A stretch of 64,000 nucleotides of DNA from a virus, in the IMG/VR virus record IMGVR_UViG_3300012642_000011, positions 352,001-416,000 of that record. One strand, given 5' to 3'. Numbering within the stretch: the stretch's first letter is position 1; each line of letters opens with the position of its first letter. The position numbers and the translations under genes were made by a program. This document shows positions 32,059 to 64,000 of the stretch, in pieces. Below the pieces are notes generated by a model. The model had not been told where the DNA came from. It saw only the letters and a list, made by a program, of their open reading frames with translations, and did not search any database.

Positions 32059-32114
32059 ATCGCCCCTGTCTGTTTACGCTTATCAGGAAAACAAAAAATA
32101 TTTATATCTTCTAT

Positions 32115-32163: not shown

Positions 32164-32195
32164 ACATATTAAATTGTTGTTGAGTTATTCTCAGA

Positions 32196-32627: not shown

Positions 32628-32870
32628 TCATTTGATGGTATTAATCTCGTCATCTTCCAAGAAGAAGACAGATTCTTCATCTTCTTCCTCAATAACGACC
32701 TTTTTCTGAGGCTTTTCTACTACTCCATCCTCATCAGGAAGGACATCGTGAAGGTCATCATACCTCCTCTTCACAGTGAGTACAATGACTACTATGGCAA
32801 CAATGATGATGATTGCACATAACGCATACATCCCCCACTGCACAATCAGACTCGTAGGTATAGCATTCAT
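32628..32870 (-). CDS. Small single-pass membrane protein with acidic C-terminus
   Basis: 80 aa with one TM helix (LCAIIIIVAIVVIVLTV). Confidence 0.35.
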   Translation of the reverse strand: MNAIPTSLIVQWGMYALCAIIIIVAIVVIVLTVKRRYDDLHDVLPDEDGVVEKPQKKVVIEEEDEESVFFLEDDEINTIK

Positions 32871-37661: not shown

Positions 37662-37900
37662 AATGCCCCTCTTTATATTAATAGGATACTCTTTTCGATA
37701 CCACTATCTTAACAAAAATAAGGGTTGATCGAGTCCATGATCAACCGTTAATCTAAATAGTAGTAAATAGATTATCGCTTACGCGATTGTGAGAATCCTG
37801 CTCTCACTAATCGCTTCACAGACAGGAGTTTCACTTGGTGAAACCAAGCCAGCGCTTCCGTCTCCACGACCGTTTAACGTCTCCCCGCAACTCTGGGCGA
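37662..37900 (-). ncRNA. Predicted omega RNA (reRNA) region overlapping the tnpB 3' end and right end
   Basis: By analogy with IS605 TnpB systems, the guide RNA spans the tnpB 3' end to the element's right end. The 8-bp-stem hairpin at 37723..37746 sits in this region. Not verified. Confidence 0.25.
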
Positions 37901-47604: not shown

Positions 47605-50600
47605 GAATCACGCTCTTCCTTCATTCTTCTGTCCACCTTGGGAGCAACCCTTCTCAACTTAGGCTTATTGTCAGGTTCAGATTTGTTTTCAGACATATAT
47701 CTTCTTACCTCAGAATCCGTATCCCTATCAGCCATTGTTCCTCGTGGGTCCACGTTTCGACTTCCCACATTTCTCTCTACCCTGTCTGCTTCAGAACCGA
47801 TCTTGTCAGCCTCTCTCAAAGCCGCCTCTGCCTGCTCTCTGATTCTTCTAGCATTATCAGAGATAGACCTTGCTTTTTGTCTCGTAGAATCGCTCTCACC
47901 TCTGTTAGAATCGACATTTTCACTTCTTCTATCATTTCCAGCAGTAGAAGATTCATCCTTACTTCTGAAGAAAGATCCAACTCTATCAGCCAACGTTGTC
48001 TCCTCACCATCACGTCTCTGTGAAGAACCCTCGCCAGAAGGACGTGTCTGAGAATCATTCTCAACTACCCTCTGCGATGCATTATTCTCTGAAGGAACTG
48101 TCCTCTCAACAACGGCAGGAACTTCCTTCTCTACAGTCACTACCTTTGGCTCAACAGGTGTATCACGCTGTGGTTTAACTGTTTCAACCTTTTCTGCTCT
48201 AGGTGCCTCAGTTCTGGTGTCTGAAGGAGTTGCTGATGCATCTCTATCAATCACTACATTGTCGATTCTGTCATTCACTCTAGGTGCAGACTCATTGTTT
48301 TCTACCACTGCTGGCTTCTCAGAAGGAACCTGCCTTGTCTCGTTAATTACAGGTCTTGCTTCTGTTGCATCCACATTGCTTCTTCTGCTTTCAGCAGGTG
48401 TTGTGTCAACGTTGTTTACAGGAGTTGCCACATTGCGATCCACAGATGGAGTAGGAGCAACAGAAGATGCATCATCTACCACAATGTTCTCTGGAAGAGC
48501 ACTGCTATCGATCTGCGGCGCTCTCACATCATCTTGACGTGATTGTGCGCTGAACTCATTCTGACGCTTCTCAGAGGCAACAGGGGCTTCCCTAACAGGA
48601 ATAGTTGGAGCAACACCCTCTCTATCTACAACAGCATCATTCATGTTGTCAGACCTTGATGGGAGATCTCTTATCGCCCCTTCAGAAAGGCTATCTGCTA
48701 CTACCGCCCTGTCTGCTACAGTATCAGTATTTGCCTGCTGTGCCCTAGCAAGTCTTTCAGCCTCAGCCCTCAAGTACTCTTGTGCATTTCTGTTAGCAAC
48801 ATCAGCATCTCTCAACTCATTTTCGGCATCCCTCAAGACATTATTGTCATTTTGAGTTGGGACTGCTCTATCATCAGAGTTGTCAACACTTGGAACCACA
48901 CGATCATTGTTCTCATTCACTACACGACTTGTCTCATCAGATGAGCGTGGTGTGCGAACTTCCTCTGTTTGCACTGGATCTCGTGTTCCCTCAACTGGTG
49001 CAGATTCCACTCGTGTCAGAGTCTCATCTGGCCTGTCAACGATTGATTCTACAGGTGTTGAAGGGATAACATCAGGCATCTCTCCTGAAGGAACTCTTCT
49101 GTCCTCAGATGTTGGAACAGCCATTGGTACTTCGTCACGAACTGGTCCCTGATCACGAACTGGTCTTTCGTTACGGGCAGTTGTTGTGTCGGTTTCAACA
49201 GGAGTCTCCACCTCAGGTACGCTGTCCACATTTCTGTCCTGACTTGAGGTACTGTCAAAAGATGCATCAACATGCTGGTCCTGTGGCTGTTGTACTGGAT
49301 CAACAGGAACAACAACAGGTGGTACTGTCTCTGCTCGTGTATCAACAGGTGTTGTTGCAGATGGAAGATCCGTTGAAGATGAAACTTCAGGTCTGTTATC
49401 AGGATACATCTCTGCAATCTCTTCATCACTGTACCTTGACAAGTCCTCAGCGGTTCGTGCAGGAGCATCAAAGTCTCTTGCAGATTCAGATACAGCAGGA
49501 TCAGGGTACATCTCTGCGATCTCTTCATCACTGTACCTTGACAAGTCCTCAGCGGTTCGTGCAGGAGCATCAAAGTCTCTTGCAGATTCAGATACAGCAG
49601 GATCAGGATACATTTCTGCGATCTCTTCATCACTGTATCTTGACAAGTCCTCACGAGTATATGGCTTGTCAGTATCAGGAGTGGAGAACTGGTAGCCTGC
49701 AGCCTGCATCTCTTCGACTTCTTCCTGAGTATAATTCTCATTTGTAACAGGATCAACGAATGGCGCATCGTCATCATCAGGCAGATCATCACTATAAGAG
49801 TCATCATAACCATATGGCATGGTTTCAGGCGTAGGCATCTCGTAATCAATAGGCTCATCATCAGCAGCGGTATTAAACCTGCCTGTAGTCCTATCGCTAT
49901 CGAGTGGGCGCTCATAGTCGCGTGTTCTTGGACCCTCATTATCACCACTGTTGACATTATCATCGTCAGGAAGATCGTTTGGATCGTCGTTTCCGTTAGG
50001 ATCTCTTAGATCATCATCGTTAGGGAGATCGTTTGGATCATCATTACCGCGAGGATCAATGGTGTCTTCCCAATTGAAGTCTCTTCTTGAAGCGGTGTCC
50101 ATGTCAAACTCATCAATAGACACACCTTCAGATGTTCTTCTAAAACGATCAGCATCCTCTATGTGAGAGAGATTTGCATTATCCTTGAGAGCATTAGTGT
50201 TCAATGGTGTAGCATCATTTCCCCATTTGTCCTTGAAGTCTTGAACATCGTATTCATCTTCAGGGTCCATAACTCTCTCAGAATCTCTGAATCTCTGGTA
50301 GTAGTTGGTGTCCATGTAGTCTTCACCGTTCCACTTCTCAGCGAACTCTTCTGGTGTCATTTGTCCATCAATGACTCTTTGAACATCCTGACTCTTCATG
50401 ACTTCATTTTCTGTCCTCTCAACATCCTTGTGGGTGTACAGATCAGATGCATTCAAATCATAGTATTTGTTGGAGTAAGCATCATGAGCAATCTTTGATG
50501 CTGCCAATGTAGATGCTGCAATAGCAAGATCATTTCCACGACTTGTTACATCATCAGAGATGTTTGCAAGTGCTTCTTTGTCTTCAGCAAGTTTCACAAC

Positions 50601-53384
50601 ATGCTCAACCATTGCGGATTCGGAATCGGCATCAAAGCGCTCAATGTCTCTGATAGAGAGTTCGGTTTCGAACTCCATCTCGAACTTCTCCTTGGCATTG
50701 TTCCATTCTTCAGTAGAATGCCTTCCCATGAGTTCTTGCTTCTCATCCTTGAGGTCTTGCAACTGATTCTCAAGCGCAGTAGTATCTTCGCCGTTGGCTT
50801 CAGCAACTTGAATGTTCAACTTCATGTCACGGATAGCATTTTCAAGTTCTTTCAACTCGGCAAGGTCAGCATACATTTGCTGGTTGCTCTTGGTAGAACT
50901 GGTCTGCTCGAACTGGGAGATGGCCTCCTGCTTCTCTTCATCACTCAATGATTCATCATTATTGATGTCATTAATGAATTGTTGATGCTTATTGTATTCG
51001 GATTCTTGCATGTCATAGAGTACGTCCTGAGCAGCCTGATCGTTGGCCTTCTTGTTCTGGTCAAGATAAGAAAGCTTTGCCTGATGATCTCGTACAGATT
51101 CCGATCTTCCCTCTGCATCCTGCTTTACAGTGTTGTAAGAAGAGACTGCTGCATTGTGTGTAGCCTCTGCATTTCTGACAGCATTTGCAGACTGCTCCAT
51201 CTTGGCCTTGAGTTCTTTCCTGTTCTGAAGGCTTGTACGATCCATAGCACGCATAGTGGCTGCCAGAGTGGTGTTGCCCTTCTTGAGTTCTCTGGTTGCA
51301 CCATCCACAACTCCAGCCTTGAGGCTTCCACCAGCAAAGGCTGATCCCACAGCACCGCCCATTGCACTTCTGCTGACTCTCTTCCAACGTTCTCCATCGT
51401 TGCCGAACCTCTGCTTAAGCGCATCAGTGGTCTTACGTCCTATCTGTTCTCCACCCATATTGACACGACCAATGAGTTCCATTATTTCTGACCTGTAGTA
51501 CCACAGAACAAGGCTGATAAGGATGATGAAAATCATAGTCATCAAAATGTTGTCCATGCCTGCAAGTGCTGCACCATAGAATGCTATAGTGATGACCAAG
51601 AACAAAGCGGATACGACATATTTGATCAGGTAGCCAACAACATTCTCAAGCCAGCCGAAGAAGATCCTCTTTCCTCTACCTGGATGTGCTGCAAAGAGCA
51701 AGAAGAAGGGAGCAAAGATCAACATGATCAAAGACAGTATGTAGAACATGAGGGCAGAGAGTCCAATAGCCATCAAGATCAGCCCACCAACAATGGACAT
51801 GAAGACAGCCAATCCACTCATGGTCAAGTCTTCTGTGAATCCCATTGAATTATTGGAATTCCATGAAGACCACATTCCTTGATCTTGGGCAATGACGTTG
51901 ACCAACTTATACCAATCAGCGTCTCTTGATTCAGGATTATTGAGAGCATCTATGGTAATGTCTGGTTGCATTGAAGCCTTTGAAGACAAGAATGCTTGAT
52001 AGATCATCAAGTTACAAATCTGCACATCTGACTTGTCTAGAACGAGAATACCATTCTTCATGCTGTCAGCAGACCTACTTGACCCCATGTTGACACAGAA
52101 ATCTTCTGGACTATATCCTGCTTTCTCAATCAATGGTCTAACCTGAGGACTATATGCATCAAGTCTTTCAAAACTTGTACCAAAAGATCCGTAGGAAATG
52201 GGGTTAAGAACAAAACTCTTCCAAATTTGGCAATTAATGGAATTGACTGTCATGGACATGGTTTTTCCTGATCCAATTCCAGAACCATTTGATGAGGAAA
52301 CACACAGGTTATCTCTTGATGATGTACCATTCTCAGGCACCAAAGATACACCACGTTCTCCTGTCAAACAGTTATCTCCACCCATGACGCCAATTACACA
52401 AGATGCCATGGTGTTAGTGATCTCCATAGGGGCACGTGCAAGAAGTTGTGGGTTACCGAGGAATCCAATACCGAGCATAACCACGACAATAGACCACAAT
52501 GCTCCACCTAGTGCTGACCTTACTCGTCTCTTGCCTCCTTCCCAAATAATCCACATTCCAGAAAGCACAGACATCAAAACAAGGAGAGGGAAATAAATAC
52601 TCTTGGTGAGAGAAGCGATCAGACCTTCTTCACTTCCTCCATCTCCACCAATAAATCCAAGAAGGTTAAAGCATACTGTGCCTTCTGGGGCATTTGGCTG
52701 GCAGATGAATTCAGGGTTGAACGCCCAACTGATAACCGCTCCTGAGACAAACGAGAATCCATTGGCAAGTGCAAGACCAAGATTAGCAACAGTTCTTCCT
52801 AGAGGGTTTATAATACACCCAGCGCCACCTCGTGAACTCTGAATGTCTTCCATGCGTGGGTTCTCACCCCATGCCTCTTGGTTCACATCTCTTGCAAAGA
52901 AGAACCAGCCAGGGTTCTCATTCTCACCATAAAAGTTGACAAAGAAAGCGTTGTTAGCAAATGCCTCTTGTGCAGTGAATACTCTGTTCTCTGATTCTCC
53001 ATTAGGGAAAGTACTTAGTGGTGTAGTCCAATCATTTTTATCACCCATTCCAACGCCTAGTCCTGGGCTACAGAACAATGATGCCTCTGCCTGACCTACA
53101 GAAACAGAATGCTGATCGGGAGAACCTGAATTATTATTTGTAAGAGAAGAAATACCTAAAGGAAGAAAGGTCATCACAAGCACAATTAAGGCCAGAGCAA
53201 TCGCACTGGCTGCATTGAAAACAGATGTGATCTTCTTCGTCTCAACTGGTGAAGTGTACTGAGAACTCAGGTAGTTTGCATTCCCGCTCAAGGTTATTCT
53301 CCTGCTCGTCTTTTTGGTTCTGGTATCAGTTTTCTCTAAATAGACACAAAAAGAGAAGGCCGCTGACTCTATTTTCAATATCAC
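47601..53384 (-). CDS. Giant VirB6/TrbL-like polytopic membrane protein (up to 1927 aa) with roughly 800-aa disordered repeat-containing tail
   Basis: Membrane core with IFAPFFLLFAAHPGRGKRIF, paralogous to the other two giants. A coiled-coil region precedes a D/E/P/V/R-rich tail with 34-aa tandem repeats. The likely true start is a TTG near 53291, preceded by AGGAGAATAACC. Confidence 0.55.
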   Translation of the reverse strand: MILKIESAAFSFCVYLEKTDTRTKKTSRRITLSGNANYLSSQYTSPVETKKITSVFNAASAIALALIVLVMTFLPLGISSLTNNNSGSPDQHSVSVGQAEASLFCSPGLGVGMGDKNDWTTPLSTFPNGESENRVFTAQEAFANNAFFVNFYGENENPGWFFFARDVNQEAWGENPRMEDIQSSRGGAGCIINPLGRTVANLGLALANGFSFVSGAVISWAFNPEFICQPNAPEGTVCFNLLGFIGGDGGSEEGLIASLTKSIYFPLLVLMSVLSGMWIIWEGGKRRVRSALGGALWSIVVVMLGIGFLGNPQLLARAPMEITNTMASCVIGVMGGDNCLTGERGVSLVPENGTSSRDNLCVSSSNGSGIGSGKTMSMTVNSINCQIWKSFVLNPISYGSFGTSFERLDAYSPQVRPLIEKAGYSPEDFCVNMGSSRSADSMKNGILVLDKSDVQICNLMIYQAFLSSKASMQPDITIDALNNPESRDADWYKLVNVIAQDQGMWSSWNSNNSMGFTEDLTMSGLAVFMSIVGGLILMAIGLSALMFYILSLIMLIFAPFFLLFAAHPGRGKRIFFGWLENVVGYLIKYVVSALFLVITIAFYGAALAGMDNILMTMIFIILISLVLWYYRSEIMELIGRVNMGGEQIGRKTTDALKQRFGNDGERWKRVSRSAMGGAVGSAFAGGSLKAGVVDGATRELKKGNTTLAATMRAMDRTSLQNRKELKAKMEQSANAVRNAEATHNAAVSSYNTVKQDAEGRSESVRDHQAKLSYLDQNKKANDQAAQDVLYDMQESEYNKHQQFINDINNDESLSDEEKQEAISQFEQTSSTKSNQQMYADLAELKELENAIRDMKLNIQVAEANGEDTTALENQLQDLKDEKQELMGRHSTEEWNNAKEKFEMEFETELSIRDIERFDADSESAMVEHVVKLAEDKEALANISDDVTSRGNDLAIAASTLAASKIAHDAYSNKYYDLNASDLYTHKDVERTENEVMKSQDVQRVIDGQMTPEEFAEKWNGEDYMDTNYYQRFRDSERVMDPEDEYDVQDFKDKWGNDATPLNTNALKDNANLSHIEDADRFRRTSEGVSIDEFDMDTASRRDFNWEDTIDPRGNDDPNDLPNDDDLRDPNGNDDPNDLPDDDNVNSGDNEGPRTRDYERPLDSDRTTGRFNTAADDEPIDYEMPTPETMPYGYDDSYSDDLPDDDDAPFVDPVTNENYTQEEVEEMQAAGYQFSTPDTDKPYTREDLSRYSDEEIAEMYPDPAVSESARDFDAPARTAEDLSRYSDEEIAEMYPDPAVSESARDFDAPARTAEDLSRYSDEEIAEMYPDNRPEVSSSTDLPSATTPVDTRAETVPPVVVPVDPVQQPQDQHVDASFDSTSSQDRNVDSVPEVETPVETDTTTARNERPVRDQGPVRDEVPMAVPTSEDRRVPSGEMPDVIPSTPVESIVDRPDETLTRVESAPVEGTRDPVQTEEVRTPRSSDETSRVVNENNDRVVPSVDNSDDRAVPTQNDNNVLRDAENELRDADVANRNAQEYLRAEAERLARAQQANTDTVADRAVVADSLSEGAIRDLPSRSDNMNDAVVDREGVAPTIPVREAPVASEKRQNEFSAQSRQDDVRAPQIDSSALPENIVVDDASSVAPTPSVDRNVATPVNNVDTTPAESRRSNVDATEARPVINETRQVPSEKPAVVENNESAPRVNDRIDNVVIDRDASATPSDTRTEAPRAEKVETVKPQRDTPVEPKVVTVEKEVPAVVERTVPSENNASQRVVENDSQTRPSGEGSSQRRDGEETTLADRVGSFFRSKDESSTAGNDRRSENVDSNRGESDSTRQKARSISDNARRIREQAEAALREADKIGSEADRVERNVGSRNVDPRGTMADRDTDSEVRRYMSENKSEPDNKPKLRRVAPKVDRRMKEERDS
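49401..49655. repeat. 102-bp tandem repeat (about 2.5 copies) inside the 1927-aa gene
   Basis: Copies start near 49401, 49503 and 49605. They encode TAEDLSRYSDEEIAEMYPDPAVSESARDFDAPAR and are nearly identical. Confidence 0.8.
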
Positions 53385-53434: not shown

Positions 53435-54892
53435 TCACTTTTCCAAGATAGCAGATGCCACCTCTGCAATCTTAGACCTCTCTGTCTTCTTCAATGTGAT
53501 GTGAGCAGCAACGCCCTTGTCCTTAAGCTGGTCGATCAACTTCCACACATCAGCATTCTGACCAGACCTTAAGTACTTATTATCTACCTGAGCCGCATCA
53601 AAAGTGAGGATGATCTTAGAATCCTTTCCTGCTCTGGAAAGAATGTGCAGCAACTCTGAAGAAGAGAAGTTCTGCGCCTCTTCAATAATCAAAATAGCGT
53701 TGGAGATGGAGCGGCCTCTGAGGTAAGTGATAGGCTGTACTTCAATGAACTCATACAGTTTCTCCTTCTCCTTATTAATATTCTCCTTTGATGTACTCTT
53801 ATTCTTAGACTCATTGGAAATTGTGGCAATGGATTCCAAAGCATCATCAATAGCACCTGCCCATGGTGCCATCTTGTCTTCAATAGTACCTGGCAGGAAT
53901 CCCATCTCCTGACCCTGACCCATCTCGTGAAGACTCCTAAAGACAAGCACCTTTCTGTAAGGCGTATGCGCGTCTTTTACTTGAGCGATAGAGGCAGCAA
54001 GAGCAACCATCGTCTTTCCACCACCTGCATTTCCACCTACAGAGACGACAGGAATGCTATCTGATGACTCATTGATGTATTCCACCAATGCCTTCTGCTC
54101 AATTGATCTTGGAACAATATTGATGCTATTATTCCTTGCTTTGATTCTACATGCTTCACTAGAAAGATTCTTGACAATCTTCCTATTGACCATCAAATAG
54201 GTCATTGCCTTGTTCTGATTTATCACGATGAGAGCACTACTTGCAGCGCCCTCTGGCAGTCTACTGAGAACAAGAGTTTGGAACTCAGCAGAGACCACAC
54301 CACTATCATCCTCATCATAGGCCATGTTGACTTCCTCATCGGAGAGGTTTACATGATAAACACCATCGAAAGGTCGCACTTCAGTTGAAAGATCATAAGC
54401 ATCTTTTTCAAGATGCAACTTGGCATTGATCCTCATAGGTAGATCTCTTGAAAGAAGCACTACATCTTTTCTCTCATCTGCGCTTTTGGCTTTTTCCTCT
54501 TCGGATCGATTCTTAAGGACGGCAAGGATTGTGCTGTCATTGCTTCCATCCTGAAGAGGAAGTGGAAGTGTGCTCTGATTCTTGTGATTCATCTCAATAG
54601 ATAGATACACATTATCTGTTTCTGGGATCAATACACCCTTTTCAAAATTATCCTTACCATCAGAGATGAGAGTATCCTCAATCAGATGCAACCATGCTCT
54701 TGCAGAATAGCCAAGCGTGCTGTGTGATCTCTTTTCCTCCAACTCCCTGATCACCACTGCTGGAATCACAAAAACGCAATTGCTGAATTCCTGCAACATG
54801 GAGGGGCTGAAATCAAGAAGAATTGATGTATCGACAACCACCTCCTTTTCCTTGAGAAATTCGGAAACCTTGGTGTTGTTATCGTTGATCAT
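53435..54892 (-). CDS. PIN-domain PhoH-like ATPase (PhoH2/YlaK architecture)
   Basis: N-terminal PIN VVVDTSILLDF ... VFVIPAVVIRELE. C-terminal PhoH P-loop VVSVGGNAGGGKTMVALAAS, plus DE and TGD motifs. Confidence 0.75.
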   Translation of the reverse strand: MINDNNTKVSEFLKEKEVVVDTSILLDFSPSMLQEFSNCVFVIPAVVIRELEEKRSHSTLGYSARAWLHLIEDTLISDGKDNFEKGVLIPETDNVYLSIEMNHKNQSTLPLPLQDGSNDSTILAVLKNRSEEEKAKSADERKDVVLLSRDLPMRINAKLHLEKDAYDLSTEVRPFDGVYHVNLSDEEVNMAYDEDDSGVVSAEFQTLVLSRLPEGAASSALIVINQNKAMTYLMVNRKIVKNLSSEACRIKARNNSINIVPRSIEQKALVEYINESSDSIPVVSVGGNAGGGKTMVALAASIAQVKDAHTPYRKVLVFRSLHEMGQGQEMGFLPGTIEDKMAPWAGAIDDALESIATISNESKNKSTSKENINKEKEKLYEFIEVQPITYLRGRSISNAILIIEEAQNFSSSELLHILSRAGKDSKIILTFDAAQVDNKYLRSGQNADVWKLIDQLKDKGVAAHITLKKTERSKIAEVASAILEK

Positions 54893-55130: not shown

Positions 55131-55862
55131 TCATGGAGATGGCGATTCAGAAGACTCACTATAAGCATCCGTGCTCATAGAAATAGCAGCGCTGACTTCA
55201 GCCTCCTGCACATTACAAGTAGATACCCATGGCTCAAGATGGAACATACTCTGTGAAGCATCATAGATCTTTACTCTCAAGATGTCATAAGACCCTGATG
55301 AAGCCTCGTTTTCAGGAAGTTCTGCCGCGCCATGTGAAAGAGGTACTATACCGGAAGCTGTAGTTCCCCCATATCCCTTATAAGATCCTCGACCTTCCAC
55401 AAGTCCATTATCATTGATCCTGTCAGAAAGGTTCCCACTTACACCAGATGATACTAGCTGGAATTCATAATAGGGAGCACTCACCACTTTTGAATCTTTT
55501 CTTAATTGTCCATCAAGACCAACAGTACCCTTCAAATCAATCGTATCACAAACGCCTTCTGCAGATGCCTGTCCTACTGTCCTTGTTTGATCGGAGTTCT
55601 CATACGCACTAATAGTAGCATTGATAGCCTTGTTCTTATGAATAAAACCATCGCCTTTGATTTGGGATGCTCCCCTGTTGACAGCATTCTGTGCAAGCGA
55701 CCTCTGTGTAGCAGCGTTAACAGCCTGATCTGAAATTGACATTCCCATGACCCACATTCCAACCAATAATGGGATGCCAATCAGGAAGGGGGTGAGGACA
55801 GAATCACCATCATCTTTTCCGTCTTTGAATTTATGCTGGATAGTCTCTTTAAAGTATTTCAT
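55131..55862 (-). CDS. TadE/TadG-like pseudopilin (243 aa)
   Basis: Short charged leader, then GDSVLTPFLIGIPLLVGMWVMG as a single N-terminal hydrophobic helix, then a secreted beta-rich domain. Confidence 0.45.
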   Translation of the reverse strand: MKYFKETIQHKFKDGKDDGDSVLTPFLIGIPLLVGMWVMGMSISDQAVNAATQRSLAQNAVNRGASQIKGDGFIHKNKAINATISAYENSDQTRTVGQASAEGVCDTIDLKGTVGLDGQLRKDSKVVSAPYYEFQLVSSGVSGNLSDRINDNGLVEGRGSYKGYGGTTASGIVPLSHGAAELPENEASSGSYDILRVKIYDASQSMFHLEPWVSTCNVQEAEVSAAISMSTDAYSESSESPSP

Positions 55863-56458
55863 TTATTCTTTCCTCCGCACATCTCTGTTGTAGAAGATTC
55901 TCCCTTAGCCAACTTCACTTCAGATCCTGCAGTAGCACATGTACGTTGAACTGTCTCCTCACCTTCAATTGCATTTTGCAAACTCAAGAATGAAAGAGGG
56001 AATGATCCATATGTCCAATCAATTTGGCACCACATTGTTGAACCTACGCCTGTTGACTGATCTGGACCACAAGCAACTTTGTTCACATCAATGTTCACCA
56101 TTCCATGACCATCAGCGTTGGCAATACTGTTCAATACTCCACATTCAACAGGTTTAGAAGCAACAGCGTCTGGGAATTTCTTCTTTCCAATCCCATCACA
56201 CGCCCCCTTCATGCCGCCTTGTTCATAAGAAACTTTGGTATACACCTCTGGAACATCTTCCGCTTTCGTTGATCCGAAAGAAGCAACAGAGTCAGCACCT
56301 GATTTGGCAAGAGAAGTCATCACAGTGGAATTGGTATTGTATACGTGGAAATCAAGAAGACTTATAGCACATACTATCATAGGGAAAACAACCAGCAGCA
56401 TGCTTACAAGGGTATCACCCCTATCGCTTTTAAGTTTTTTAAGTATTCTTGAAATCAT
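55859..56458 (-). CDS. TadE-like pseudopilin (199 aa)
   Basis: Leader KSDRGDTLVSMLLVVFPMIVCAISLL. Same architecture as its two neighbours. Confidence 0.45.
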   Translation of the reverse strand: MISRILKKLKSDRGDTLVSMLLVVFPMIVCAISLLDFHVYNTNSTVMTSLAKSGADSVASFGSTKAEDVPEVYTKVSYEQGGMKGACDGIGKKKFPDAVASKPVECGVLNSIANADGHGMVNIDVNKVACGPDQSTGVGSTMWCQIDWTYGSFPLSFLSLQNAIEGEETVQRTCATAGSEVKLAKGESSTTEMCGGKNK

Positions 56459-56503
56459 TTTGATCCCCCATTAAATAAGGTTTATATTACTTTAATATCT
56501 AAT

Positions 56504-57085
56504 TCACGCAACAGAAGTAGAACATTTCTCTGTTGACTTGATACCATTAGGATTCATTGCCACTTCTGCTGCTGCTGTTCCACATGTAAGATTGGAATGT
56601 TTTGCCTTAGGAGCCATCGCTTGATATGCTGCCCTAAGGCTTCCTGCCAATGCAGGACTTTCCCATTCTACTTCACAGAAAGTCAACTCATTGACTTCTG
56701 TTGTTGTGCGAGGGGCACAGTGAACATTGTGAATCACAATGTTTCCTATTCCTTTTCCTTCAACTGCTGAGATCCTATTGATGATTTCACATTCAGTGGC
56801 AGATTTTCCAACAGTGCTTCCCTTGTACAACTTTGTATTCAAATTTTCACAGTTATCATTTACGCCTACAGTTTTAGACAATTTACTTGACTCATTACCA
56901 CCAAGGACAGCAACAGTAGTTGCACCATCTCTTGCAATCGTTTGAATAGCCGCTTGGTTTTTCTGAAGGATCGCAAAATCAGGGATGGTGAACACCATGA
57001 CCGCTAAAATGGCAATGACAATGATAAAACTCACTAAAGAGTCACCTGTATCATCCTTGAACCTATCTATAATTCTTTGTTTCAT
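56504..57085 (-). CDS. TadE-like pseudopilin (193 aa)
   Basis: Leader DDTGDSLVSFIIVIAILAVMVFTIPDF, resembling the TadE consensus (G-S/A-x-x-V-E-F-hydrophobic). Confidence 0.45.
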   Translation of the reverse strand: MKQRIIDRFKDDTGDSLVSFIIVIAILAVMVFTIPDFAILQKNQAAIQTIARDGATTVAVLGGNESSKLSKTVGVNDNCENLNTKLYKGSTVGKSATECEIINRISAVEGKGIGNIVIHNVHCAPRTTTEVNELTFCEVEWESPALAGSLRAAYQAMAPKAKHSNLTCGTAAAEVAMNPNGIKSTEKCSTSVA

Positions 57086-57116
57086 TGTGTGCTATCCTCC
57101 ATGGCAGAAACAATGA

Positions 57117-58004
57117 TCAATTTCCAAACTTCTTGATCTTGTCAAGTTCTTCTCTAAGGTTCCTAATGAGATCTAAATAATTCATGCATTGTGAGCAATT
57201 GTAGATCTTGGGGACATCTCCCCAACCATTCTCGGCCACATCAATGATAGATATGTAGAACCTTCTTTTTGCGTCAAGACTAAGGTGGGCATCAGAGATA
57301 CTATTAGGTTCCAAAGCGAAGATCATCATTCTTAAGTAATCAGATGATGAGATCATTAATCTCTGTGCTCTCCATTTGATTGTCTCTGCTTCTGCTGTGG
57401 ACATTCTTCCAGAAAGACGATTGGATCTTTTTACTTTTTGTGAAATAAGTTTACCCAGTTTATCATCGATTTCGCTGATCCTTTTCTGATGCATGTATAC
57501 TTCATCTTCATCTTCTTCGTTGTCCATCATGTCATAGGCAGCAAAACGTTCTTTCTGAAGAGCGTTCTTGTTCTTCTCAATGTCGTCTAGTTCCTCTAAA
57601 GCCTTCTCTGCCCTATCTCTCCAATGTGGGAGATCGATGCTGGCAATGGACCTTGATCTGATGATCTCGGCCATAGAGGTTTTCTCGCCAATCTTCTTAA
57701 TCTTTTCAATCTCATTGTCTAAAGATGTCCTCTCTGAATCAGTAACTGTGATAGTAACTCTCTGATCGAGGGGAGCGCCTCGTTTTTTAGCAGGAGATCT
57801 TCTTGGCTTCCATTCCTCTTTGAAAAGTTCTGCAAGGTCTTCCCTATTGTACCTTTTCAAAAGTTCAAGTTTGGCATTGACATCCATCTCTTCAGTAGCA
57901 ACAGTATATTTTTTACTTTCTGCTTCCTCTTGAGATTTCTGTTTTCTCAAATCAGATTTGATCTTCTCCACACGTGAATTTGATCTCTTAGTCATAGTAG
58001 CCAT
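57117..58004 (-). CDS. Hypothetical charged coiled-coil protein (295 aa)
   Basis: Intact ORF. Confidence 0.3.
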   Translation of the reverse strand: MATMTKRSNSRVEKIKSDLRKQKSQEEAESKKYTVATEEMDVNAKLELLKRYNREDLAELFKEEWKPRRSPAKKRGAPLDQRVTITVTDSERTSLDNEIEKIKKIGEKTSMAEIIRSRSIASIDLPHWRDRAEKALEELDDIEKNKNALQKERFAAYDMMDNEEDEDEVYMHQKRISEIDDKLGKLISQKVKRSNRLSGRMSTAEAETIKWRAQRLMISSSDYLRMMIFALEPNSISDAHLSLDAKRRFYISIIDVAENGWGDVPKIYNCSQCMNYLDLIRNLREELDKIKKFGN

Positions 58005-58024
58005 TCTTATCTCCTTTTTAAAAC

Positions 58025-58816
58025 TCAGCAGGTAGCAAGAGCTTTAGACAATTCCTTTTTATCGTCTTCTGTGACGGATACTTTGTACTTATCTGCCACA
58101 GTGATCCATGAGACAGCATAATCGCAATGGAGTGACTTATTGGGTGGCATGTACTCAGAGGGGCCTTTGCTTCCTTTCTTTCTGTTCTCTGATGCTGATG
58201 CAGCAATCAGATTCAAAGGATCGTTGGCAAATGACTCTTTCGTATTTTTATCCCAACTCACTCCACCATGAGATGATGCGTACTCAAGGGGTATGATGTG
58301 ATCAATATCAAGTTCACCTGGGTCTGTAATCTCTACATTGCTGTACGGATCAACCCATTTACCTGACTCAACTCTGCATGCAGTGCCTGATCGCATTGCA
58401 ATGTTAGTTCCGTCACGTTTAAGGGTGTCCTGTCGAGAATCACAGCCGTTACCATCTGGATCACTCCAATGCTTCCAATCGGATCTGCTATAACCTTGTG
58501 TCACTGGTGCCGAAACAGCAATTCCCTTAAGTTTGTTCTCCATCTTGCCAACTTCTTCTTTTGTTGGAGCGGGAGATTCTTTGCTGTCCTTACCACCTGG
58601 CTTCAAAGAGCCTTCAATGTAATCACAATCTTTAAACCAGCTGGTAACACACTGAGACCATCGATCAGATTGACTCCTTAGGTTCTCTATGAGATCCTTT
58701 GAAGATTTGACGTTGTTTACATTCATGGCAGCGTAAACTAAACCGCCTACCAAGAATAACGCCACAATACTCGTGATCGCGTTACCCAAACCCATTCCTG
58801 AAGACTTCTTTGCCAT
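58025..58816 (-). CDS. Membrane-anchored His-Me finger (HNH/DUF1524-like) nuclease
   Basis: Signal anchor NAITSIVALFLVGGLVYAA. C-terminal DIDHIIPLEYASSHGG ... NLIAASASENRKKGSKG, matching the DHxxP...N...N pattern of secreted His-Me nucleases. Confidence 0.5.
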   Translation of the reverse strand: MAKKSSGMGLGNAITSIVALFLVGGLVYAAMNVNNVKSSKDLIENLRSQSDRWSQCVTSWFKDCDYIEGSLKPGGKDSKESPAPTKEEVGKMENKLKGIAVSAPVTQGYSRSDWKHWSDPDGNGCDSRQDTLKRDGTNIAMRSGTACRVESGKWVDPYSNVEITDPGELDIDHIIPLEYASSHGGVSWDKNTKESFANDPLNLIAASASENRKKGSKGPSEYMPPNKSLHCDYAVSWITVADKYKVSVTEDDKKELSKALATC

Positions 58817-58835
58817 ATGTGATCACATTCTCCTC

Positions 58836-60221
58836 TCATGCAACATCAATTTCGTCGCCAACCTCTGAATTGAAATTAAATCCCGATGTTGCCATGAAGG
58901 CAAGGTTGGCATGTTGAACAAAGTCTTTGTCTCTCATCCTGTCACCAGGCATCTGCTCAAGCAGAGCATCTACTTGATCGGCACCTGTCCTTCTCAACTT
59001 CACTTGGTGTCTTTCATAAGATGAGATAATGGATGCACACTTCTTGTTCAAATCTTCAAGGGTGCTTGCTTCCACAGCAATTCTGAATTTTCCTTCAATC
59101 CATGGGCTTGCATCAGATGCCAAAATGTCACTCAGAATATTGATGTCAGAGAGAGACTTGTAAGCATCTGATGGTATTCCCGTGATCTGGGCATCATATC
59201 TATCCTGTCCTGCCTCAATGTTCTTCATCTCGTCCTTGTGTTCTTTTCTTTTCTTCTCTACTTCCCTTCTCATCTTTGAGGATGGGACCAAAATAAATCT
59301 GCCGTAACAGGTGAATGGTTCCCTGAGCATGGAAGAGTAGTAGAGAAATGGTGGCATACCAGGGAAATTGAAAGTGTCTGGGAACTTCTCAAAAACAAGA
59401 GATGCTCTGTATCCTTCAAGTTCAATGTCCTCAAACATTTGAGTGAACTTCAAGTGATTCCACTTCTTTTCAATATGAGATCCGACCTCTCTGGCAATGT
59501 CTCCAGGACCCACTCTGGTCTTATCGCTGACAAGCAAGTAAGGGGAAGGCATACCAGGATAAAGTGGTCTTTTAACCATGAGGAGGATTTCTTCTGTTGT
59601 TGCTCTTTCCGCCTTGAAGTCGCCTGTGCTGATCACTCTAAAGAAGTCTTGTTCTCTTCTTCTCATTGCTCTTTCTTCTTCTTCTGAGATTTTGCTGCCA
59701 GGTGGGGAAGCGATTTTATCAATGAGATCGTAAATATAATTCTTTGCTTCTACCAATCCAGCTTCAAACACATTGGGAATGTCAAGAGCACCTCTATTGG
59801 CAATCTTCACTCCAATGTATGTTGTCTTCTTAGTAAATGCCTCTCTTTCAAGGAATGCATCCTGAGCATCAAGGTAGTTGCTTAGTTCAGGAGATGTTTC
59901 CCATCCTTCAGATTCCACTTCAATCTGTGCTCTCCATGCATCAATGTCAATAGGGACGTGTGTAGCAATAATTTGGATTTCGAGTTCTTGATCAGAATTG
60001 AGGGCAAGGGAAGATAGCGCCCTGCCTGTCATCAATGCTGTTGAGATTCGCTGCTGTATATCAAGAAAGTCAAAGGACATAGTACTGATTTTGTAATAGG
60101 CATAAACATCTTTTTTGGAGAATGTGATGTTGTCTATGATTCCATTGATGGCAATGTCTAGCACCTTTCCTTTCTTCCTTGGCTCACGATTTTTGCTCTT
60201 GGCCTTATCTCTTCCTGCCAT
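58836..60221 (-). CDS. Hypothetical cytoplasmic protein (461 aa)
   Basis: Intact ORF. No Walker motifs and no recognisable relaxase motifs. Confidence 0.3.
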   Translation of the reverse strand: MAGRDKAKSKNREPRKKGKVLDIAINGIIDNITFSKKDVYAYYKISTMSFDFLDIQQRISTALMTGRALSSLALNSDQELEIQIIATHVPIDIDAWRAQIEVESEGWETSPELSNYLDAQDAFLEREAFTKKTTYIGVKIANRGALDIPNVFEAGLVEAKNYIYDLIDKIASPPGSKISEEEERAMRRREQDFFRVISTGDFKAERATTEEILLMVKRPLYPGMPSPYLLVSDKTRVGPGDIAREVGSHIEKKWNHLKFTQMFEDIELEGYRASLVFEKFPDTFNFPGMPPFLYYSSMLREPFTCYGRFILVPSSKMRREVEKKRKEHKDEMKNIEAGQDRYDAQITGIPSDAYKSLSDINILSDILASDASPWIEGKFRIAVEASTLEDLNKKCASIISSYERHQVKLRRTGADQVDALLEQMPGDRMRDKDFVQHANLAFMATSGFNFNSEVGDEIDVA

Positions 60222-60254
60222 CCCTGTTCTCCTTAAAAATCAATATTTTCCATG

Positions 60255-60305
60255 ATAAAAATCAATATCATAAAATAAGGAGAGGTGGCTAAATGCCACC
60301 TCTCC
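60255..60305 (-). terminator. Strong rho-independent terminator after the small pilin-like gene
   Basis: 11-bp perfect stem ggagaggtggc / gccacctctcc with a 5-nt loop, followed by a T-rich tract (TTATTTTATGATATTGATTTTT). Confidence 0.55.
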
Positions 60306-60331
60306 ACTATCTATCCGCATTATGAGACGAA

Positions 60332-60619
60332 TCAGTTACCACTTACTTCATCTATAACGCTCTTACCCGCACCTGATAGGTTTCCCTTCTCGCCAAAGAG
60401 TGAGTCTCCACTGAAGATGAAGAGAGACGCGATCACAGCGATAAGTGCGAATGTCAGGAAGCCCATAACCTGTTTCCTCACGGCAAGCGTGATGGCAATA
60501 ACAGCGATGATGGCGATGAAAGCTGGTCCAAGCCAGTCACTGATGACAGTGTTGGTAAGGTTTCCCAGTCCCTGTCCCTGTACAAAGATAAGGTCATTTG
60601 CAATTGCAAGAATTTCCAT
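60332..60619 (-). CDS. Small two-helix membrane protein, VirB2/pilin-like candidate (95 aa)
   Basis: Good RBS GGAGTGATAAACAATG. Two hydrophobic helices and a strong terminator downstream, the usual signature of a highly expressed pilin or VirB2-like gene. Confidence 0.35.
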   Translation of the reverse strand: MEILAIANDLIFVQGQGLGNLTNTVISDWLGPAFIAIIAVIAITLAVRKQVMGFLTFALIAVIASLFIFSGDSLFGEKGNLSGAGKSVIDEVSGN

Positions 60620-60746: not shown

Positions 60747-62342
60747 TTAATTTTCTGTATTTGGATCAGCAATATACAAATAAGGTCTAAAATCGCTCAC
60801 CAAATACTTTTCTCCACCCTTCTTTATAGTGATTACATATTTAGAACTGTGGGAAGTAGTGTTAGTTCCACTATTATCATCGGCTGCAGGCTTTTCTCCT
60901 GCAGGAGTAACCTGCTTCTTCAAGTTCAGATCTGCAACAACCTTGAACACAGTGGGATCATCTGTCTCATACAATGTATACTGAATTGTTTCTGAACCCA
61001 GTTGATAAGCATTGTCAAAACCGCTCTTCAGCGTGACGGGAGGATCAGATACAGTATACTGCTGAAGACTCTTATAGTCTTGAGGAGATGATGACATGTA
61101 AGCCTTGACGAATCCTTCTACAGTTGCTCTTGCATCTTCCCCAATTTCAGAATTGGCGGTTCCATTTCCAACCATCAAAGCCTTTGGATTATCGGCAGGA
61201 GATCCAATTCCCACTGGCGCAACCAATGTAGGAGAACCTTCAGCAATAGAGTACATTCCTGTTACGGAGTTGTAGTACACATTCACGTTATAGAACTCTC
61301 TGTCCACTACAGTCTCTGTCTTTGGCTTTGACTTGGAGTTTGAAGCCTGCTCAGTAGTGATAGTTCTCTGCACATTTACACCAATGATATAACTTGCACT
61401 GTTAGGGCTTAAAGCATTCTGTTGGTAAATAACAGCACCATCCACAGGAGATTGTTTAATCCCTGCACCAATACTTCTTCGCGCAGAACCATTAGCAGAT
61501 TGACCGTTCTGATAATCTGAAAGAATACTATCAGTACCCTTGTTGCCATTTGTCAAATATGCTTCAATGAATTGAGTAGCGAATGCTCCACCACCCTCAA
61601 CAGGGAATCCTGTTCGACCAAACTCACTATTAGCAATGCCTCTGATTTCTTCTTCATTATAGTTTTTTGGAGGGAAAAAAACATTCTTAAGCACTATAGC
61701 CGCAATAAGTGCTATCAATCCTAGGACAAGATTTCTGACAAGTTTACGCTTCTTCTCAAGATTTTCTCGGGTGTCATATCGACTTTCCCTGACAACCATG
61801 CCACCAAAGGGGAGGATCTTCTTTTTGTCCTTATCAATGAACTCATCTCTTCCTTGAGGATCTTTGCCTCTTGAAGAAGGACTCTTCTGCTTCAAAGAAG
61901 CCTTAGTTTCCTTCAAAGCATTAGATGTCCCTTCTCTTTGCCTTAAATCTCGTTGCTTCCTCACCCTGTTGATCTTTGCCTGATCAGGGGCATCTCTTGA
62001 ATCCTCACGCATCCTCGCAATTTCGTCCAATGTCTGTTTGCTATATTCAACACTATCGTTGAAATCTTTTTCCTCTTGCTCAAACTGATCAAAAGAAATT
62101 GATTCAAAAGCATCTTCATCATTATCACTTGACTCATCAACCATAGAATCTTCTCTTGATTTCACATCAGGTACATCAGGAGTCTCATCATATGGCGTTT
62201 TTGGCCTAGGCTTCAAATTGATTGTGTCATCAGGGAGATCATCATCCTCAAATTCAATATGGAAATCCGATCCTTCATTCATCTTTGGCCTACTTGGCTG
62301 AGGTAGGTTAAAGTTTCTTTCGTTTTTCTTTGGAAGTGCCAT
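60747..62342 (-). CDS. TcpC/VirB8-like bitopic conjugation protein (tentative)
   Basis: Acidic cytoplasmic N-terminus and a single TM (LVLGLIALIAAIVL). Two extracytoplasmic domains each open with an F..AY(L/M) helix (AFATQFIEAYLT, VEGFVKAYMS), as in the NTF2-like TcpC/VirB8 folds. Confidence 0.4.
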   Translation of the reverse strand: MALPKKNERNFNLPQPSRPKMNEGSDFHIEFEDDDLPDDTINLKPRPKTPYDETPDVPDVKSREDSMVDESSDNDEDAFESISFDQFEQEEKDFNDSVEYSKQTLDEIARMREDSRDAPDQAKINRVRKQRDLRQREGTSNALKETKASLKQKSPSSRGKDPQGRDEFIDKDKKKILPFGGMVVRESRYDTRENLEKKRKLVRNLVLGLIALIAAIVLKNVFFPPKNYNEEEIRGIANSEFGRTGFPVEGGGAFATQFIEAYLTNGNKGTDSILSDYQNGQSANGSARRSIGAGIKQSPVDGAVIYQQNALSPNSASYIIGVNVQRTITTEQASNSKSKPKTETVVDREFYNVNVYYNSVTGMYSIAEGSPTLVAPVGIGSPADNPKALMVGNGTANSEIGEDARATVEGFVKAYMSSSPQDYKSLQQYTVSDPPVTLKSGFDNAYQLGSETIQYTLYETDDPTVFKVVADLNLKKQVTPAGEKPAADDNSGTNTTSHSSKYVITIKKGGEKYLVSDFRPYLYIADPNTEN

Positions 62343-62405: not shown

Positions 62406-64000
62406 TTAATCATCATCTGGAAGATCATCACTTTCTTCATCATCAAATGACATAGAACTCAAAGTAGACACAGAACGCATTGCTGAATGATCAACTGCGC
62501 TACTCACACTCTGATCATGACGAGAAGAATCAGCACGAGACTTGAAAGGAGATTCTGAAAGAGCAGAAAAATCCATCTTTTCCTTACTCAAAATCTCCTC
62601 CTCCGTCTTTGCAACCGTGGGATCACTCTTCTTTTCAGATGAAGATGTGCTTCTCCTTGAATCAGAAATCAAAGATTCCTTTGCGGGCAATTCCCTCTTA
62701 ACTCTTTCTTTTCTTTGGTTTATAATATGCTGTGCAGCATCAGGAGATTCAAAGAAATTACCAGAATCTACAAGAGGCTCCGGTTCCTTTTTGGAAGGCT
62801 GATACTCTGTGTCATCAATCTGCTCTATGCCCTCATTGATGATTTCACCTTCTTCTATTCGAGAAATGGTGAAATCATCATCATCAATGATCTCATCACT
62901 TTCATTCATCTGACCATAATACTCATCATAACTCACTTGAGATACATGTTCTGCATCAACATCATTATATGCGGTATCAAAATCTGAATCATCATAGTGA
63001 TCACCGTTTTCAGAAACGAAATCTCCGTCCTCATCTACAACAGGAGGAAGTTCAACTCTCTCAAGAACCTTGGATGCAGGGATCATCCAGCACTCTTCAG
63101 CAACAGCGCCGACAATGCCATCATGCCTTGGGTCAGCAGAAGACTTCTTCACAATGATAGCAGTGGCCTTCCAACCGTTACTTGGGTTAGGCATGCTTAG
63201 TCCCATCATCTTTCTTGGCGGAACTTTCCAATCCTCGACTTCCTCAATCCTCACATTGTTGTTTCTCTTGTTCTTGAAGTTAAGGGAGAAGAATCCTGTC
63301 TTTGACATATTGGTTTGAGAGTATCGCGTCACTCTTTCCTGACCAATGACTTTACTAACTCGCTCTGCTGAACTTTGTGCTGAACCACCATGAATGAAAT
63401 AGTTTGCCACTGTATCCAGAATAGAGTTCAACTGTGCTTCTCCATTAGAGCCTGCTGCAGCAATGACCTGCTCAAAAGACTGAGAAGCAATAGTCATAGC
63501 AAGATAAGATGAACGTGCTTTCTCCAACAATGGTCTGAGTACTTGGGGGTCAACTGCTTGGAACTCATCAATGTACACACAAACCTGATTATTGATAGTA
63601 TTGTTTCTTCTCTTTGCAGATACCTGAGCAAGATCTGCCATGATCAAAGATCCAAAATACTTTGAAAAGTCAGGAGAACCATCAGCGTCAATGGAGAAAA
63701 GAACAACATTTCCACCAGTCTTGGTCAATTCAAATAGATTGATGTTGTTTGTGCTTTCTGAAGATGTTTTCAGCCATTGACCATATCCTGAAGCAATCAT
63801 TGTTCTCAACGTTCCCTGAAGTTCTCCAAAAGCCTGATGCAATGTGCTCTTAGACGACTGGATTGCTTCTGCAACCTGCATGAATGGGATACCTATTTCT
63901 GGATGATGCTTTTTAACACTCTCACCAAGAGTAATAAAACTTGAGTCACTTTCTACTGCAGAATAAACCTTATATATTTCACCATGATCCCAATCAATAT
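62406..64000 (-). CDS. Type IV coupling protein (VirD4/TraG family) C-terminal part (gene continues past the window end)
   Basis: Walker B VCVYIDEFQAV, then AMTIASQSFEQV (the TraG/VirD4 Q-motif region). The frame stays open from 63881 to 64000. A long acidic C-terminal tail ends DDEESDDLPDDD. Confidence 0.65.
   Translation of the reverse strand, partial: IDWDHGEIYKVYSAVESDSSFITLGESVKKHHPEIGIPFMQVAEAIQSSKSTLHQAFGELQGTLRTMIASGYGQWLKTSSESTNNINLFELTKTGGNVVLFSIDADGSPDFSKYFGSLIMADLAQVSAKRRNNTINNQVCVYIDEFQAVDPQVLRPLLEKARSSYLAMTIASQSFEQVIAAAGSNGEAQLNSILDTVANYFIHGGSAQSSAERVSKVIGQERVTRYSQTNMSKTGFFSLNFKNKRNNNVRIEEVEDWKVPPRKMMGLSMPNPSNGWKATAIIVKKSSADPRHDGIVGAVAEECWMIPASKVLERVELPPVVDEDGDFVSENGDHYDDSDFDTAYNDVDAEHVSQVSYDEYYGQMNESDEIIDDDDFTISRIEEGEIINEGIEQIDDTEYQPSKKEPEPLVDSGNFFESPDAAQHIINQRKERVKRELPAKESLISDSRRSTSSSEKKSDPTVAKTEEEILSKEKMDFSALSESPFKSRADSSRHDQSVSSAVDHSAMRSVSTLSSMSFDDEESDDLPDDD

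Follow-up and report, generated by a model that had tools for sequence, protein, structure and literature searches.

How DNA passes through the thick cell wall in Gram-positive conjugation is an open question, and VirB4 is regarded as the one universal ATPase of type IV secretion systems (T4SSs). Gram-positive T4SSs have been described without pilins or conjugative pili (PMC12102498, PMC12857230). Here, we analyse a T4SS gene cluster that contains genes resembling those of Tad (type IVc) pili, located in a 64 kb (64,000 nt) stretch of the IMG/VR record IMGVR_UViG_3300012642_000011 (positions 352,001-416,000; referred to below as the window). The locus raises the question of whether the pilus-like genes belong to the transfer apparatus and, if they do, what such an apparatus might build and in which direction it might move DNA.

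An earlier note on this DNA had proposed a hybrid DNA-transfer machine, for either export or uptake, composed of three tandem TadE-like pseudopilins, a membrane nuclease, a small pilin-like gene and a VirB11/CpaF-type ATPase within a conjugation cluster. We find that TadE-family proteins and an exported nuclease are indeed embedded in a cluster of the MPF_FA/Tcp type, with a linkage conserved in 25 related loci; the small pilin did not hold up, and the link to the ATPase is uncertain. We judge the chances to be about even that the transfer apparatus is a mosaic of a Tcp/MPF_FA-type Gram-positive T4SS and a Tad system, which would build a pseudopilus and export DNA. The support for this reading is genomic, and comes from directly established homology, gene architecture, synteny, purifying selection and a divided VirB4.

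A T4SS cluster with TadE-like genes at its centre

Every gene in the window is carried by the minus strand, with a steadily negative GC skew, and the open reading frames (ORFs) discussed in the earlier note are all present on that strand at the coordinates given here. The three TadE-like genes – p3 (56504..57085, 193 aa), p2 (55859..56458, 199 aa) and p1, or TadE2 (55131..55862, 243 aa) – are preceded by genes coding for an N-terminal-domain-only VirB4/TcpF protein (VirB4N; 58836..60221, 461 aa), an exported or membrane-anchored DUF1524/GmrSD_C His-Me nuclease (58025..58816, 263 aa), and a NikA-like ribbon-helix-helix protein (57117..58004, 295 aa) that is a putative relaxosome accessory. From VirB4N to p1 the genes are separated by gaps of only 19-45 nt, with the p1 start overlapping the p2 stop by 4 nt, and because of this tight spacing they are read as one operon, in which the trio appears to be co-transcribed with VirB4N, the nuclease and the NikA-like gene. 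The operon has VirD4, TcpC-like and TcpD-like genes to one side, with PhoH2, a VirB6 giant and a lysozyme to the other.

On the first of these sides, a VirD4/TcpA-like type IV coupling protein is represented by its C-terminal part (62406..64000; Pfam TraG-D_C 1.8e-9 and TrwB_AAD_bind 2.2e-6; NCBIfam TraD/CD1115), with a reading frame that stays open to base 64000 at the window edge; its orthologs in related loci are 710-839 aa long. It is followed by a TcpC/VirB8-like bitopic protein of 531 aa (60747..62342), with an acidic N-terminal region, one predicted transmembrane (TM) segment at residues 199-225 and a large external domain. Alone, the 531-aa protein has no Pfam match; seven of 13 members of its family match PF12642 TcpC (best 2.2e-11), so that the coupling protein and the TcpC/VirB8-like gene suspected on this side are both borne out, the former by Pfam and the latter through its family. 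The next gene (60332..60619) codes for a 95-aa protein with two TM segments and lies immediately upstream of the VirB4-like gene. It had been taken for a pilin-like gene, an assignment that present evidence does not bear out: the protein alone reaches NCBIfam TcpD at 0.042, and its family matches TcpD models (6/14 members, best E 2.2e-4). Its position is that of VirB3; in MPF_FA systems, VirB3-like proteins are identified by their topology and their place next to VirB4 (PMC12857230). In one related locus (L003, 3718-7746) the VirD4 gene codes for 1342 aa with weak or faint Hom_end and LAGLIDADG matches, and appears to contain an intein.

On the other side, PhoH2 (53435..54892), which combines PIN and PhoH ATPase domains (Pfam PhoH 1.1e-36, PIN_4 1.7e-14; NCBIfam PhoH2 3.8e-81, below cutoff), is followed by a giant VirB6/TrbL-like polytopic protein of 1927 aa (47601..53384), assigned by PF04610 TrbL (6.5e-10) and TM prediction, and by a cell-wall hydrolase with a phage-tail-lysozyme-type domain (46186..47604; PF18013 4.1e-27), a VirB1/TcpG analogue. 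The VirB6-like giant and lysozyme named in the earlier note are therefore both confirmed. The VirB6 giant has orthologs in all loci and ends in a long, acidic, repetitive C-terminal tail. Within this tail a 102-bp tandem repeat at 49398-49653 (2.5 copies, 96% identical) encodes ...LSRYSDEEIAEMYPDPAVSESARDFDAP... units, and tail length is highly variable, with VirB6 ranging from 911 to 1927 aa among relatives. The lysozyme homologs of relatives show additional faint NLPC_P60 and weak VanY matches. The cluster as a whole contains a coupling protein and VirB8/TcpC-like, VirB3-like and VirB6-like proteins together with a wall hydrolase, in an order conserved across loci.

The nuclease predicted earlier at 58025..58816 is well supported, with a match to PF07510 at 6.3e-14 (52.5 bits against a cutoff of 23) and a hydrophobic N-terminus. 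The hydrophobic segment is single and N-terminal (residues 8-34), and could be either a signal anchor or a cleavable signal peptide (VYA/A, as read by eye). In a family alignment of 10 copies the motifs D..DH..P, ND and N-R-x-K are invariant or at least 90% conserved, and six Cys residues are conserved across 10 relatives, which fits an extracytoplasmic nuclease. The NikA-like protein matches PF21983 at 1.9e-6 (28.4 bits against a cutoff of 27) and is strongly conserved between loci (E 1e-50 to 1e-82). The window ORFs that were scanned yielded no relaxase domain, only this NikA-like accessory, and no oriT search was made.

Two TadE-family paralogs and a divergent third

The description of the trio as three tandem TadE-like pseudopilins holds for p2 and p3 and needs amending for p1. 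The sequences are better described as two TadE-family paralogs plus one divergent TadE-like paralog, which are unequal copies. The proteins p3 and p2 are 26% identical (E 9e-27) and are clear paralogs. A k-mer-seeded homolog search with p3 recovered a single 95% identical copy, and the family becomes visible only through an exhaustive HMMER search with a p2/p3 profile, which yielded 167 cluster representatives. When 126 aligned family members were scanned singly, 108 matched PF07811 TadE (best E 1.8e-10) and 12 matched PF13400 Tad. The p2 and p3 proteins belong to the family over their full length; p2 matches the family profile at E 2.5e-53, in a profile that itself includes p2 and p3 as rows, and pairwise comparisons of the window's TadE-like proteins with the TadE genes of relatives reach values down to 1.4e-22. 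A search of PDB sequences with the family profile gave no match.

The match of p1 to the family profile (E 2e-6) covers the N-terminal leader and helix only. Its identity is clearer from orthology: in every related locus the first TadE has a second, more divergent TadE-like neighbour behind it, of which p1 is the ortholog, and three of 14 p1 orthologs weakly match PF13400 Tad. The p2 gene is a tandem duplicate confined to the window and to L001, a near-identical locus, and the other loci have a single copy.

The family shares a leader, [KR]-S-D-[RK]-[GA]-D-S-x-[LT]-[VI]-[STE], followed by approximately 20 hydrophobic residues and an ARDGAR-like motif. The p3 leader is KDDTG/DSLVSF, with the slash marking the predicted cleavage site, and behind it come a hydrophobic helix of 20 residues and an ARDGA motif. 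Leaders of this type are confined to the trio within the whole window. Read as cleavage sites, the leaders give TG/DSLVSF in p3, RG/DTLVSM in p2 (both with Gly at -1) and DG/DSVLTP in p1. The external domains of the trio are small and contain Cys, with conserved Cys pairs, and an AlphaFold2 (AF2) model of p3 has a long N-terminal helix and a small alpha/beta domain, with a predicted local distance difference test (pLDDT) score of 63.

Conservation of the cluster and a Tad-motor block in relatives

The 25 related loci that we compared have VirB4N identities of 33-61%, outside the near-identical L001. NikA, TadE and TadE2 are contiguous in all 25, directly upstream of VirB6 or of PhoH2 and VirB6, and are present as full-length genes in 24. 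The NikA-like gene lies directly upstream of the TadE-like genes in every locus that covers the position, the TadE-like genes and the nuclease share one operon in 22/25 loci, and PhoH2 lies between TadE2 and VirB6 in 20/25, as in the window; it is missing from loci of the L019, L020, L022, L024 and L025 types. The complete set from VirD4 to lysozyme was found in 17 loci, 16 of them with PhoH2 and one (L025) without, at VirB4N identities down to 33%. Conservation in 25 loci across such deep divergence argues that the linkage of TadE and T4SS genes is not accidental. Compared between the window and L001, every gene has a ratio of nonsynonymous to synonymous substitution rates (dN/dS) below 1, with higher values for the predicted external proteins p3 (0.43), p1 (0.33) and TcpD (0.42) than for cytoplasmic proteins (0.05-0.14), with NikA at 0.05.

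The boundary of the VirB4N operon is also a conserved feature. A strong terminator-like hairpin (60279..60305, minus strand) with an 11 bp stem, 8 G-C pairs and a T-rich tail lies between the TcpD-like gene and the operon, and a long perfect hairpin of unrelated sequence occupies the same place in 12/12 type-I loci folded; L022 has none, only a 27-nt gap. In relatives a shared GTGTGCGC...TGATATT-like motif frequently lies between the hairpin and the VirB4N gene. The conservation of the hairpin suggests a transcription boundary or attenuator ahead of the VirB4N-to-TadE2 operon.

Related elements contain a second block in the order T2SSF – T2SSE (530-572 aa) – T2SSF – RusA-like – TcpE – VirB4 ATPase domain – CpaB-like – TadZ/CbiA-like, in which T2SSE and T2SSF were assigned by Pfam, and the RusA-like, CpaB-like and TadZ-like labels come from reading the sequences by eye together with a CbiA Pfam match. 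In L022 and L024 this Tad-motor block directly abuts the genes NikA-TadE-TadE2-VirB6-...-TcpC-TcpD, and in loci of this type the TadE pair has no nearby nuclease. In L028-L030 the block lies approximately 140 kb from type-I clusters (L014, L015 and L017) on the same IMG/VR contigs. As judged from gene order and domain assignments, Tad and T4SS genes are interleaved in both blocks. The RusA-like protein, recognised by eye from its PPTRRRLDP...DDDDW motif, lies between the second T2SSF and TcpE (L022 3596-3961; L028 8687-9304), and a RadA/Sms-like gene lies upstream of the block in L028.

A VirB4 divided between the two blocks

VirB4N matches NCBIfam TcpF over positions 3-429 of 813 (1.2e-11), and its AF2 model (pLDDT 81) has the R388 TrwK/VirB4 protein as its top Foldseek match (E 1.6e-13). 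Its 33 homologs are all 451-489 aa long. VirB4N has no Walker A motif, and neither a listing of Walker A motifs nor jackhmmer found a VirB4 ATPase domain or AAA_10-type protein in the window. The missing half is found in the relatives' second block: in the 827-aa VirB4 of a Nocardiopsis plasmid, residues 11-423 align to VirB4N, and residues 429-798, which contain the Walker A motif, match a separate gene of 395-401 aa in the related elements. Such alignments indicate that VirB4 is split in this lineage, with an N-domain gene in the T4SS cluster (58836-60221 in the window) and an ATPase-domain gene in the Tad-motor block (L022 4397-5584; L028 9989-11194).

A T2SSE-type ATPase is present in the window, as the earlier note had observed, and its attachment to the machine is what became doubtful. 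This VirB11/TadA/TrbB-like protein of 426 aa (33916..35196; PF00437 4e-25) matches NCBIfam VirB11 (1.7e-39), a conjugal-transfer-associated TadA family (3.8e-38) and TrbB (2.6e-33), all below cutoffs. It is encoded 20 kb away from the cluster beside a sigma-like gene, and its membership of the machine is uncertain. Searches of IMG/VR for its relatives, with the single protein and with an alignment, were unsuccessful. The gene downstream of it was considered as a TadB/C platform and rejected, its product being soluble and sigma-factor-like. The motor T2SSE of relatives (530-572 aa) is a different protein and is absent from the window.

Pseudopilus, accessory subunit, uptake device or adhesin

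The function of the hybrid – polymerisation and processing of the TadE-like proteins, the energy source, the direction of transfer and the role of the nuclease – is what we infer from these arrangements. In the mechanism that we propose, the TadE-like subunits would be extracted from the membrane and assembled on top of the VirB6 channel as a short pseudopilus or stalk. Energy would be supplied by a Tad-type ATPase and platform, with genes elsewhere on the element, and possibly also by the VirB11-like ATPase of the window. The stalk would carry the conjugative channel or the mating contact through the thick wall, replacing the VirB2 and VirB5 of diderm systems, and outward delivery of DNA would fall to VirD4, NikA and an unseen relaxase. 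The nuclease is the weakest step; it might process or remove extracellular DNA where the mating cells meet, or attack competing DNA.

Several observations weigh against a pseudopilus-building exporter. PF07811 TadE gave no match at E<=0.1 for p1, p2 or p3 alone, and an NCBIfam scan of the trio returned nothing. The canonical prepilin site, G/XXXXE(F/Y), is not present in the trio, which has Ser rather than Glu at +5 of p2 and p3; at the Glu5 column of the 126 family members, Ser occurs in 56, Thr in 30, Glu in 21 and Ala in 13, and most members have one extra residue between the Gly and the Glu5-aligned position. The scanned window ORFs gave no match to an A24 prepilin peptidase (TadV/CpaA) or an Flp pilin, and the peptidase sought at the suggestion of the earlier note did not materialise, with no A24 signature (GxGD[VI]K) and no Flp-like short ORF in the window or in approximately 30 fetched loci; a peptidase could still be supplied by the rest of the element or by the host. 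There is no T2SSF platform in the 64 kb window, and the Tad-motor block is seen in relatives only, a second block being presumably located elsewhere on this element. Finally, the L005 nuclease (9667-10440) has lost its catalytic His (DF for DH) and has an altered N-R-x-K motif while keeping its operon position, and nuclease activity may therefore not be essential.

In the main competing explanation, the TadE-like proteins are uncleaved, non-polymerising bitopic subunits – wall spacers, VirB6 partners or mating adhesins. We consider this unlikely, and of the alternatives it is the one that survives best. It draws on the degenerate leader motif, since Glu5 is missing in approximately 83% of the family and Gly spacing is irregular, and on the missing prepilin peptidase and major pilin in the window and fetched loci. 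The Pfam TadE model spans essentially the hydrophobic N-terminus alone, and a fold search recovered no pilin fold; the external domains, with their conserved Cys pairs and relatively fast evolution, are adhesin-like. However, the same elements keep a full Tad-type motor (TadA, TadB, TadC, TadZ-like and CpaB-like) joined to TcpE and the VirB4 ATPase domain, and a Tad motor needs a pilin-like substrate, for which the TadE-like proteins are the sole candidates seen. Moreover, 21 of the 126 members retain the canonical Glu, and a divergent paralog pair is the usual arrangement of minor pilins (TadE/TadF).

The direction of transfer is a separate issue. A competence-like device, in which a pseudopilus captures DNA, the nuclease degrades one strand or cuts, and the T4SS imports, would have parallels in ComG and EndA of streptococci and ComB of Helicobacter. 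Pseudopilin-like genes and an exported His-Me nuclease do share an operon in most loci, transformation of Micrococcus luteus can depend on a Tad locus (cited in PMC5696575), and RecA, SSB and DnaB are encoded on the element, with the RadA-like gene (identified by eye) in a relative. Nevertheless, the cluster conserves both VirD4 and the NikA-like protein, and since the DNA-uptake T4SS ComB has no VirD4 (PMC12857230) we favour export. Uptake is also disfavoured by the lack of a detectable ComEC/ComEA-like channel in the window, by the loss of the catalytic His in one nuclease lineage, and by the L022/L024-type loci that have a TadE pair without a nearby nuclease, and we regard it as improbable. 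The least probable alternative, to which we attach very little weight, is an ordinary Tad/Flp adhesion pilus for niche colonisation that merely lies beside conjugation genes, as on the linear plasmids of Cutibacterium acnes, where a tad locus beside VirB4, TcpC and FtsK-like genes is read as adhesive (PMC5696575): the emphasis of the authors who described Inocles (see below) on cell-surface and host-interaction genes would suit it, but the TadE-like genes have no locus of their own and are enclosed by NikA/VirB4N and VirB6, TcpE and the VirB4 ATPase domain are likewise enclosed by TadC and CpaB/TadZ, both arrangements are deeply conserved, and no Flp major pilin was found.

The replicon and other genes of the window

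The window appears to derive from a giant, uncultured, plasmid-like extrachromosomal element of the Inocle kind, with oral Streptococcus as its probable source, and not from an ordinary integrative and conjugative element or plasmid, judging from its gene content and from the contigs that carry its relatives. Two scans of reference genomes from 185,579 species, with one genome per species, found no relatives of VirB4N; 15 were found on IMG/VR contigs of 109-420 kb, and others on ENA contigs of 358 and 727 kb. A contig with 95-98% identity is present in SRR25400133. IMG/VR lists the related contigs as viral. A chromosome of the candidate phyla radiation (CPR)/Saccharibacteria, suggested at first by the strand bias, the size of the 727 kb contig and the genes for RecA, DnaB and SSB, was dropped because relatives were absent from the reference genomes and present on the 15 IMG/VR contigs. 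A known plasmid or phage was likewise set aside: megablast of 11 kb gave no plasmid match, and tblastn of VirB4N gave no phage match. Against plasmids, VirB4N tblastn found only VirB4 genes of 21-29% identity, in records of Nocardiopsis, Nonomuraea and Enterocloster, and tblastn of the TadE-like proteins against 72,556 plasmids found no similar protein.

Inocles are circles of 293-395 kb from oral Streptococcus that are missing from isolate genomes (PMC12340149, Kiguchi et al. 2025). They carry a conserved bifunctional transglycosylase, RpoS-like sigma factors, repair genes, insertion sequence (IS) elements, VirB4 and VirD4, and their authors stress cell-surface and host-interaction genes (PMC12340149). 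The window resembles them in contig size, absence from reference genomes, one-strand gene orientation and steady GC skew, and also in a PBP-type transglycosylase, sigma factors, repair genes, IS, and VirB4 plus VirD4, a comparison made by published description only. It differs in that one related contig, at 727 kb, is larger than the reported Inocles. The InoC marker is a protein of ~454 aa with Replic_Relax PF13814, and the window has no match to PF13814. In its main text, the Inocle paper mentions VirB4 and VirD4 in one sentence and does not mention TadE or a pilus, with 'pili' appearing only in a cited review of sortase pili (PMC12340149).

Replicon-style housekeeping genes occupy the spans 1-1421, 2672-8449, 15029-15595, 31266-33919 and 42088-43023. 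The housekeeping genes of the window code for a PBP1A-type bifunctional transglycosylase, DnaB, RecA, SSB, two HU-like proteins, two sigma-like proteins and a MoxR/VWA pair; an SbcC-like ATPase and an RNA ligase are also encoded. No tRNA, rRNA or Rfam RNA was found in the 64 kb. Two distant polytopic paralogs of the VirB6 giant (23094-26411, 1105 aa; 26408-30601, 1397 aa) match a relative's VirB6 at E 2.3e-10 and 2.6e-15, and downstream of them lie bitopic proteins of unassigned function (15808-22687). Together, the giants at 23094-30601 and the bitopic genes may constitute a second membrane apparatus. A TnpB/IS605 OrfB-type gene with a Cas12f-like TNB domain (37779-39128) lies between the SbcC-like ATPase and unknown membrane proteins, and TnpB-like copies also occur near the clusters of relatives (L022 18355-19572). 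A separate 220-aa ORF (11569-12231) has a weak Hint/intein-like match.

Relation to known systems and implications

The cluster shares with the Tcp locus of pCW3 and with other MPF_FA systems (Tn916, ICEBs1, ICESt3) a TcpA-type coupling protein, TcpC, a TcpD/TcpE-type two-TM protein next to VirB4, a TcpF/VirB4 N-domain, a polytopic VirB6/TcpH-type protein and a peptidoglycan hydrolase. Unlike those systems, it has a split VirB4 – the signature MPF_FA subunit – with a cluster copy that lacks the ATPase domain; TadE-like proteins, the DUF1524 nuclease, the NikA-like protein and PhoH2 are fixed in the cluster; and VirB6 is 1100-1900 aa long with two further paralogs in the window. The resemblance to Tad/Flp (type IVc) systems lies in a short charged leader, Gly/Ala, a hydrophobic helix with an AR(D/E)GAR-like motif, and two adjacent divergent paralogs, as well as, in relatives only, a TadA-like T2SSE, two single-domain T2SSF proteins, and CpaB-like and TadZ/CpaE-like proteins. 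It differs from Tad/Flp systems in that Ser or Thr mostly takes the place of Glu5, neither an Flp pilin nor TadV/CpaA was found, and there is no separate tad locus, the TadE-like genes being mixed in among T4SS genes.

Partnerships of a T4SS with a type IV pilus are known from the thin pilus of the IncI plasmid R64 and from PAPI-1, and a T4SS is combined with a type VII secretion system on the mycobacterial plasmid pRAW; such systems are treated as hybrid or chimeric (PMC12857230). The cluster described here shares with these three the joining of conjugation genes, including VirB4 and VirD4, to a machine of different ancestry, and is a variant of the known T4SS/type IV pilus partnerships. However, the R64 and PAPI-1 pili are of type IVb, are encoded in separate operons, have Gram-negative hosts, and include recognisable pilins and peptidases, whereas here the partner is of the Tad type, in what is presumably a monoderm host, with intermixed genes and a VirB4 divided between the blocks. 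The C. acnes linear plasmids also combine TadE-containing pilus genes with VirB4, TcpC and FtsK-like genes on a Gram-positive plasmid, but their tad locus is complete and separate, a putative pilin subunit was detected on the surface of the cells, and the locus was interpreted as adhesive (PMC5696575). In the open-access papers searched we found no description of TadE-like genes inside a Gram-positive T4SS operon, or of a split VirB4. We propose, tentatively and with the odds leaning against it, that a merged Tad motor and Tcp-type T4SS, with VirB4 split between the two halves and a TadE-based pseudopilus, constitutes a new class of monoderm DNA-transfer machine.

The cluster challenges both the view that Gram-positive T4SSs lack pilins and the view of VirB4 as universal, and provides a natural example of two secretion/pilus lineages recombining. 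The elements that carry it appear to be highly prevalent giant replicons of the Inocle type from the human mouth, for which the route of transmission is open, and the conserved set – VirB4N, nuclease, NikA, TadE, TadE2 and VirB6, together with the TadABC-TcpE-VirB4 ATPase block – offers targets for studying how they spread. If the proposed hybrid is correct, Gram-positive conjugation would have its first example of a system with a pilus or pseudopilus, and the movement of 300-700 kb elements between cells could be accounted for.

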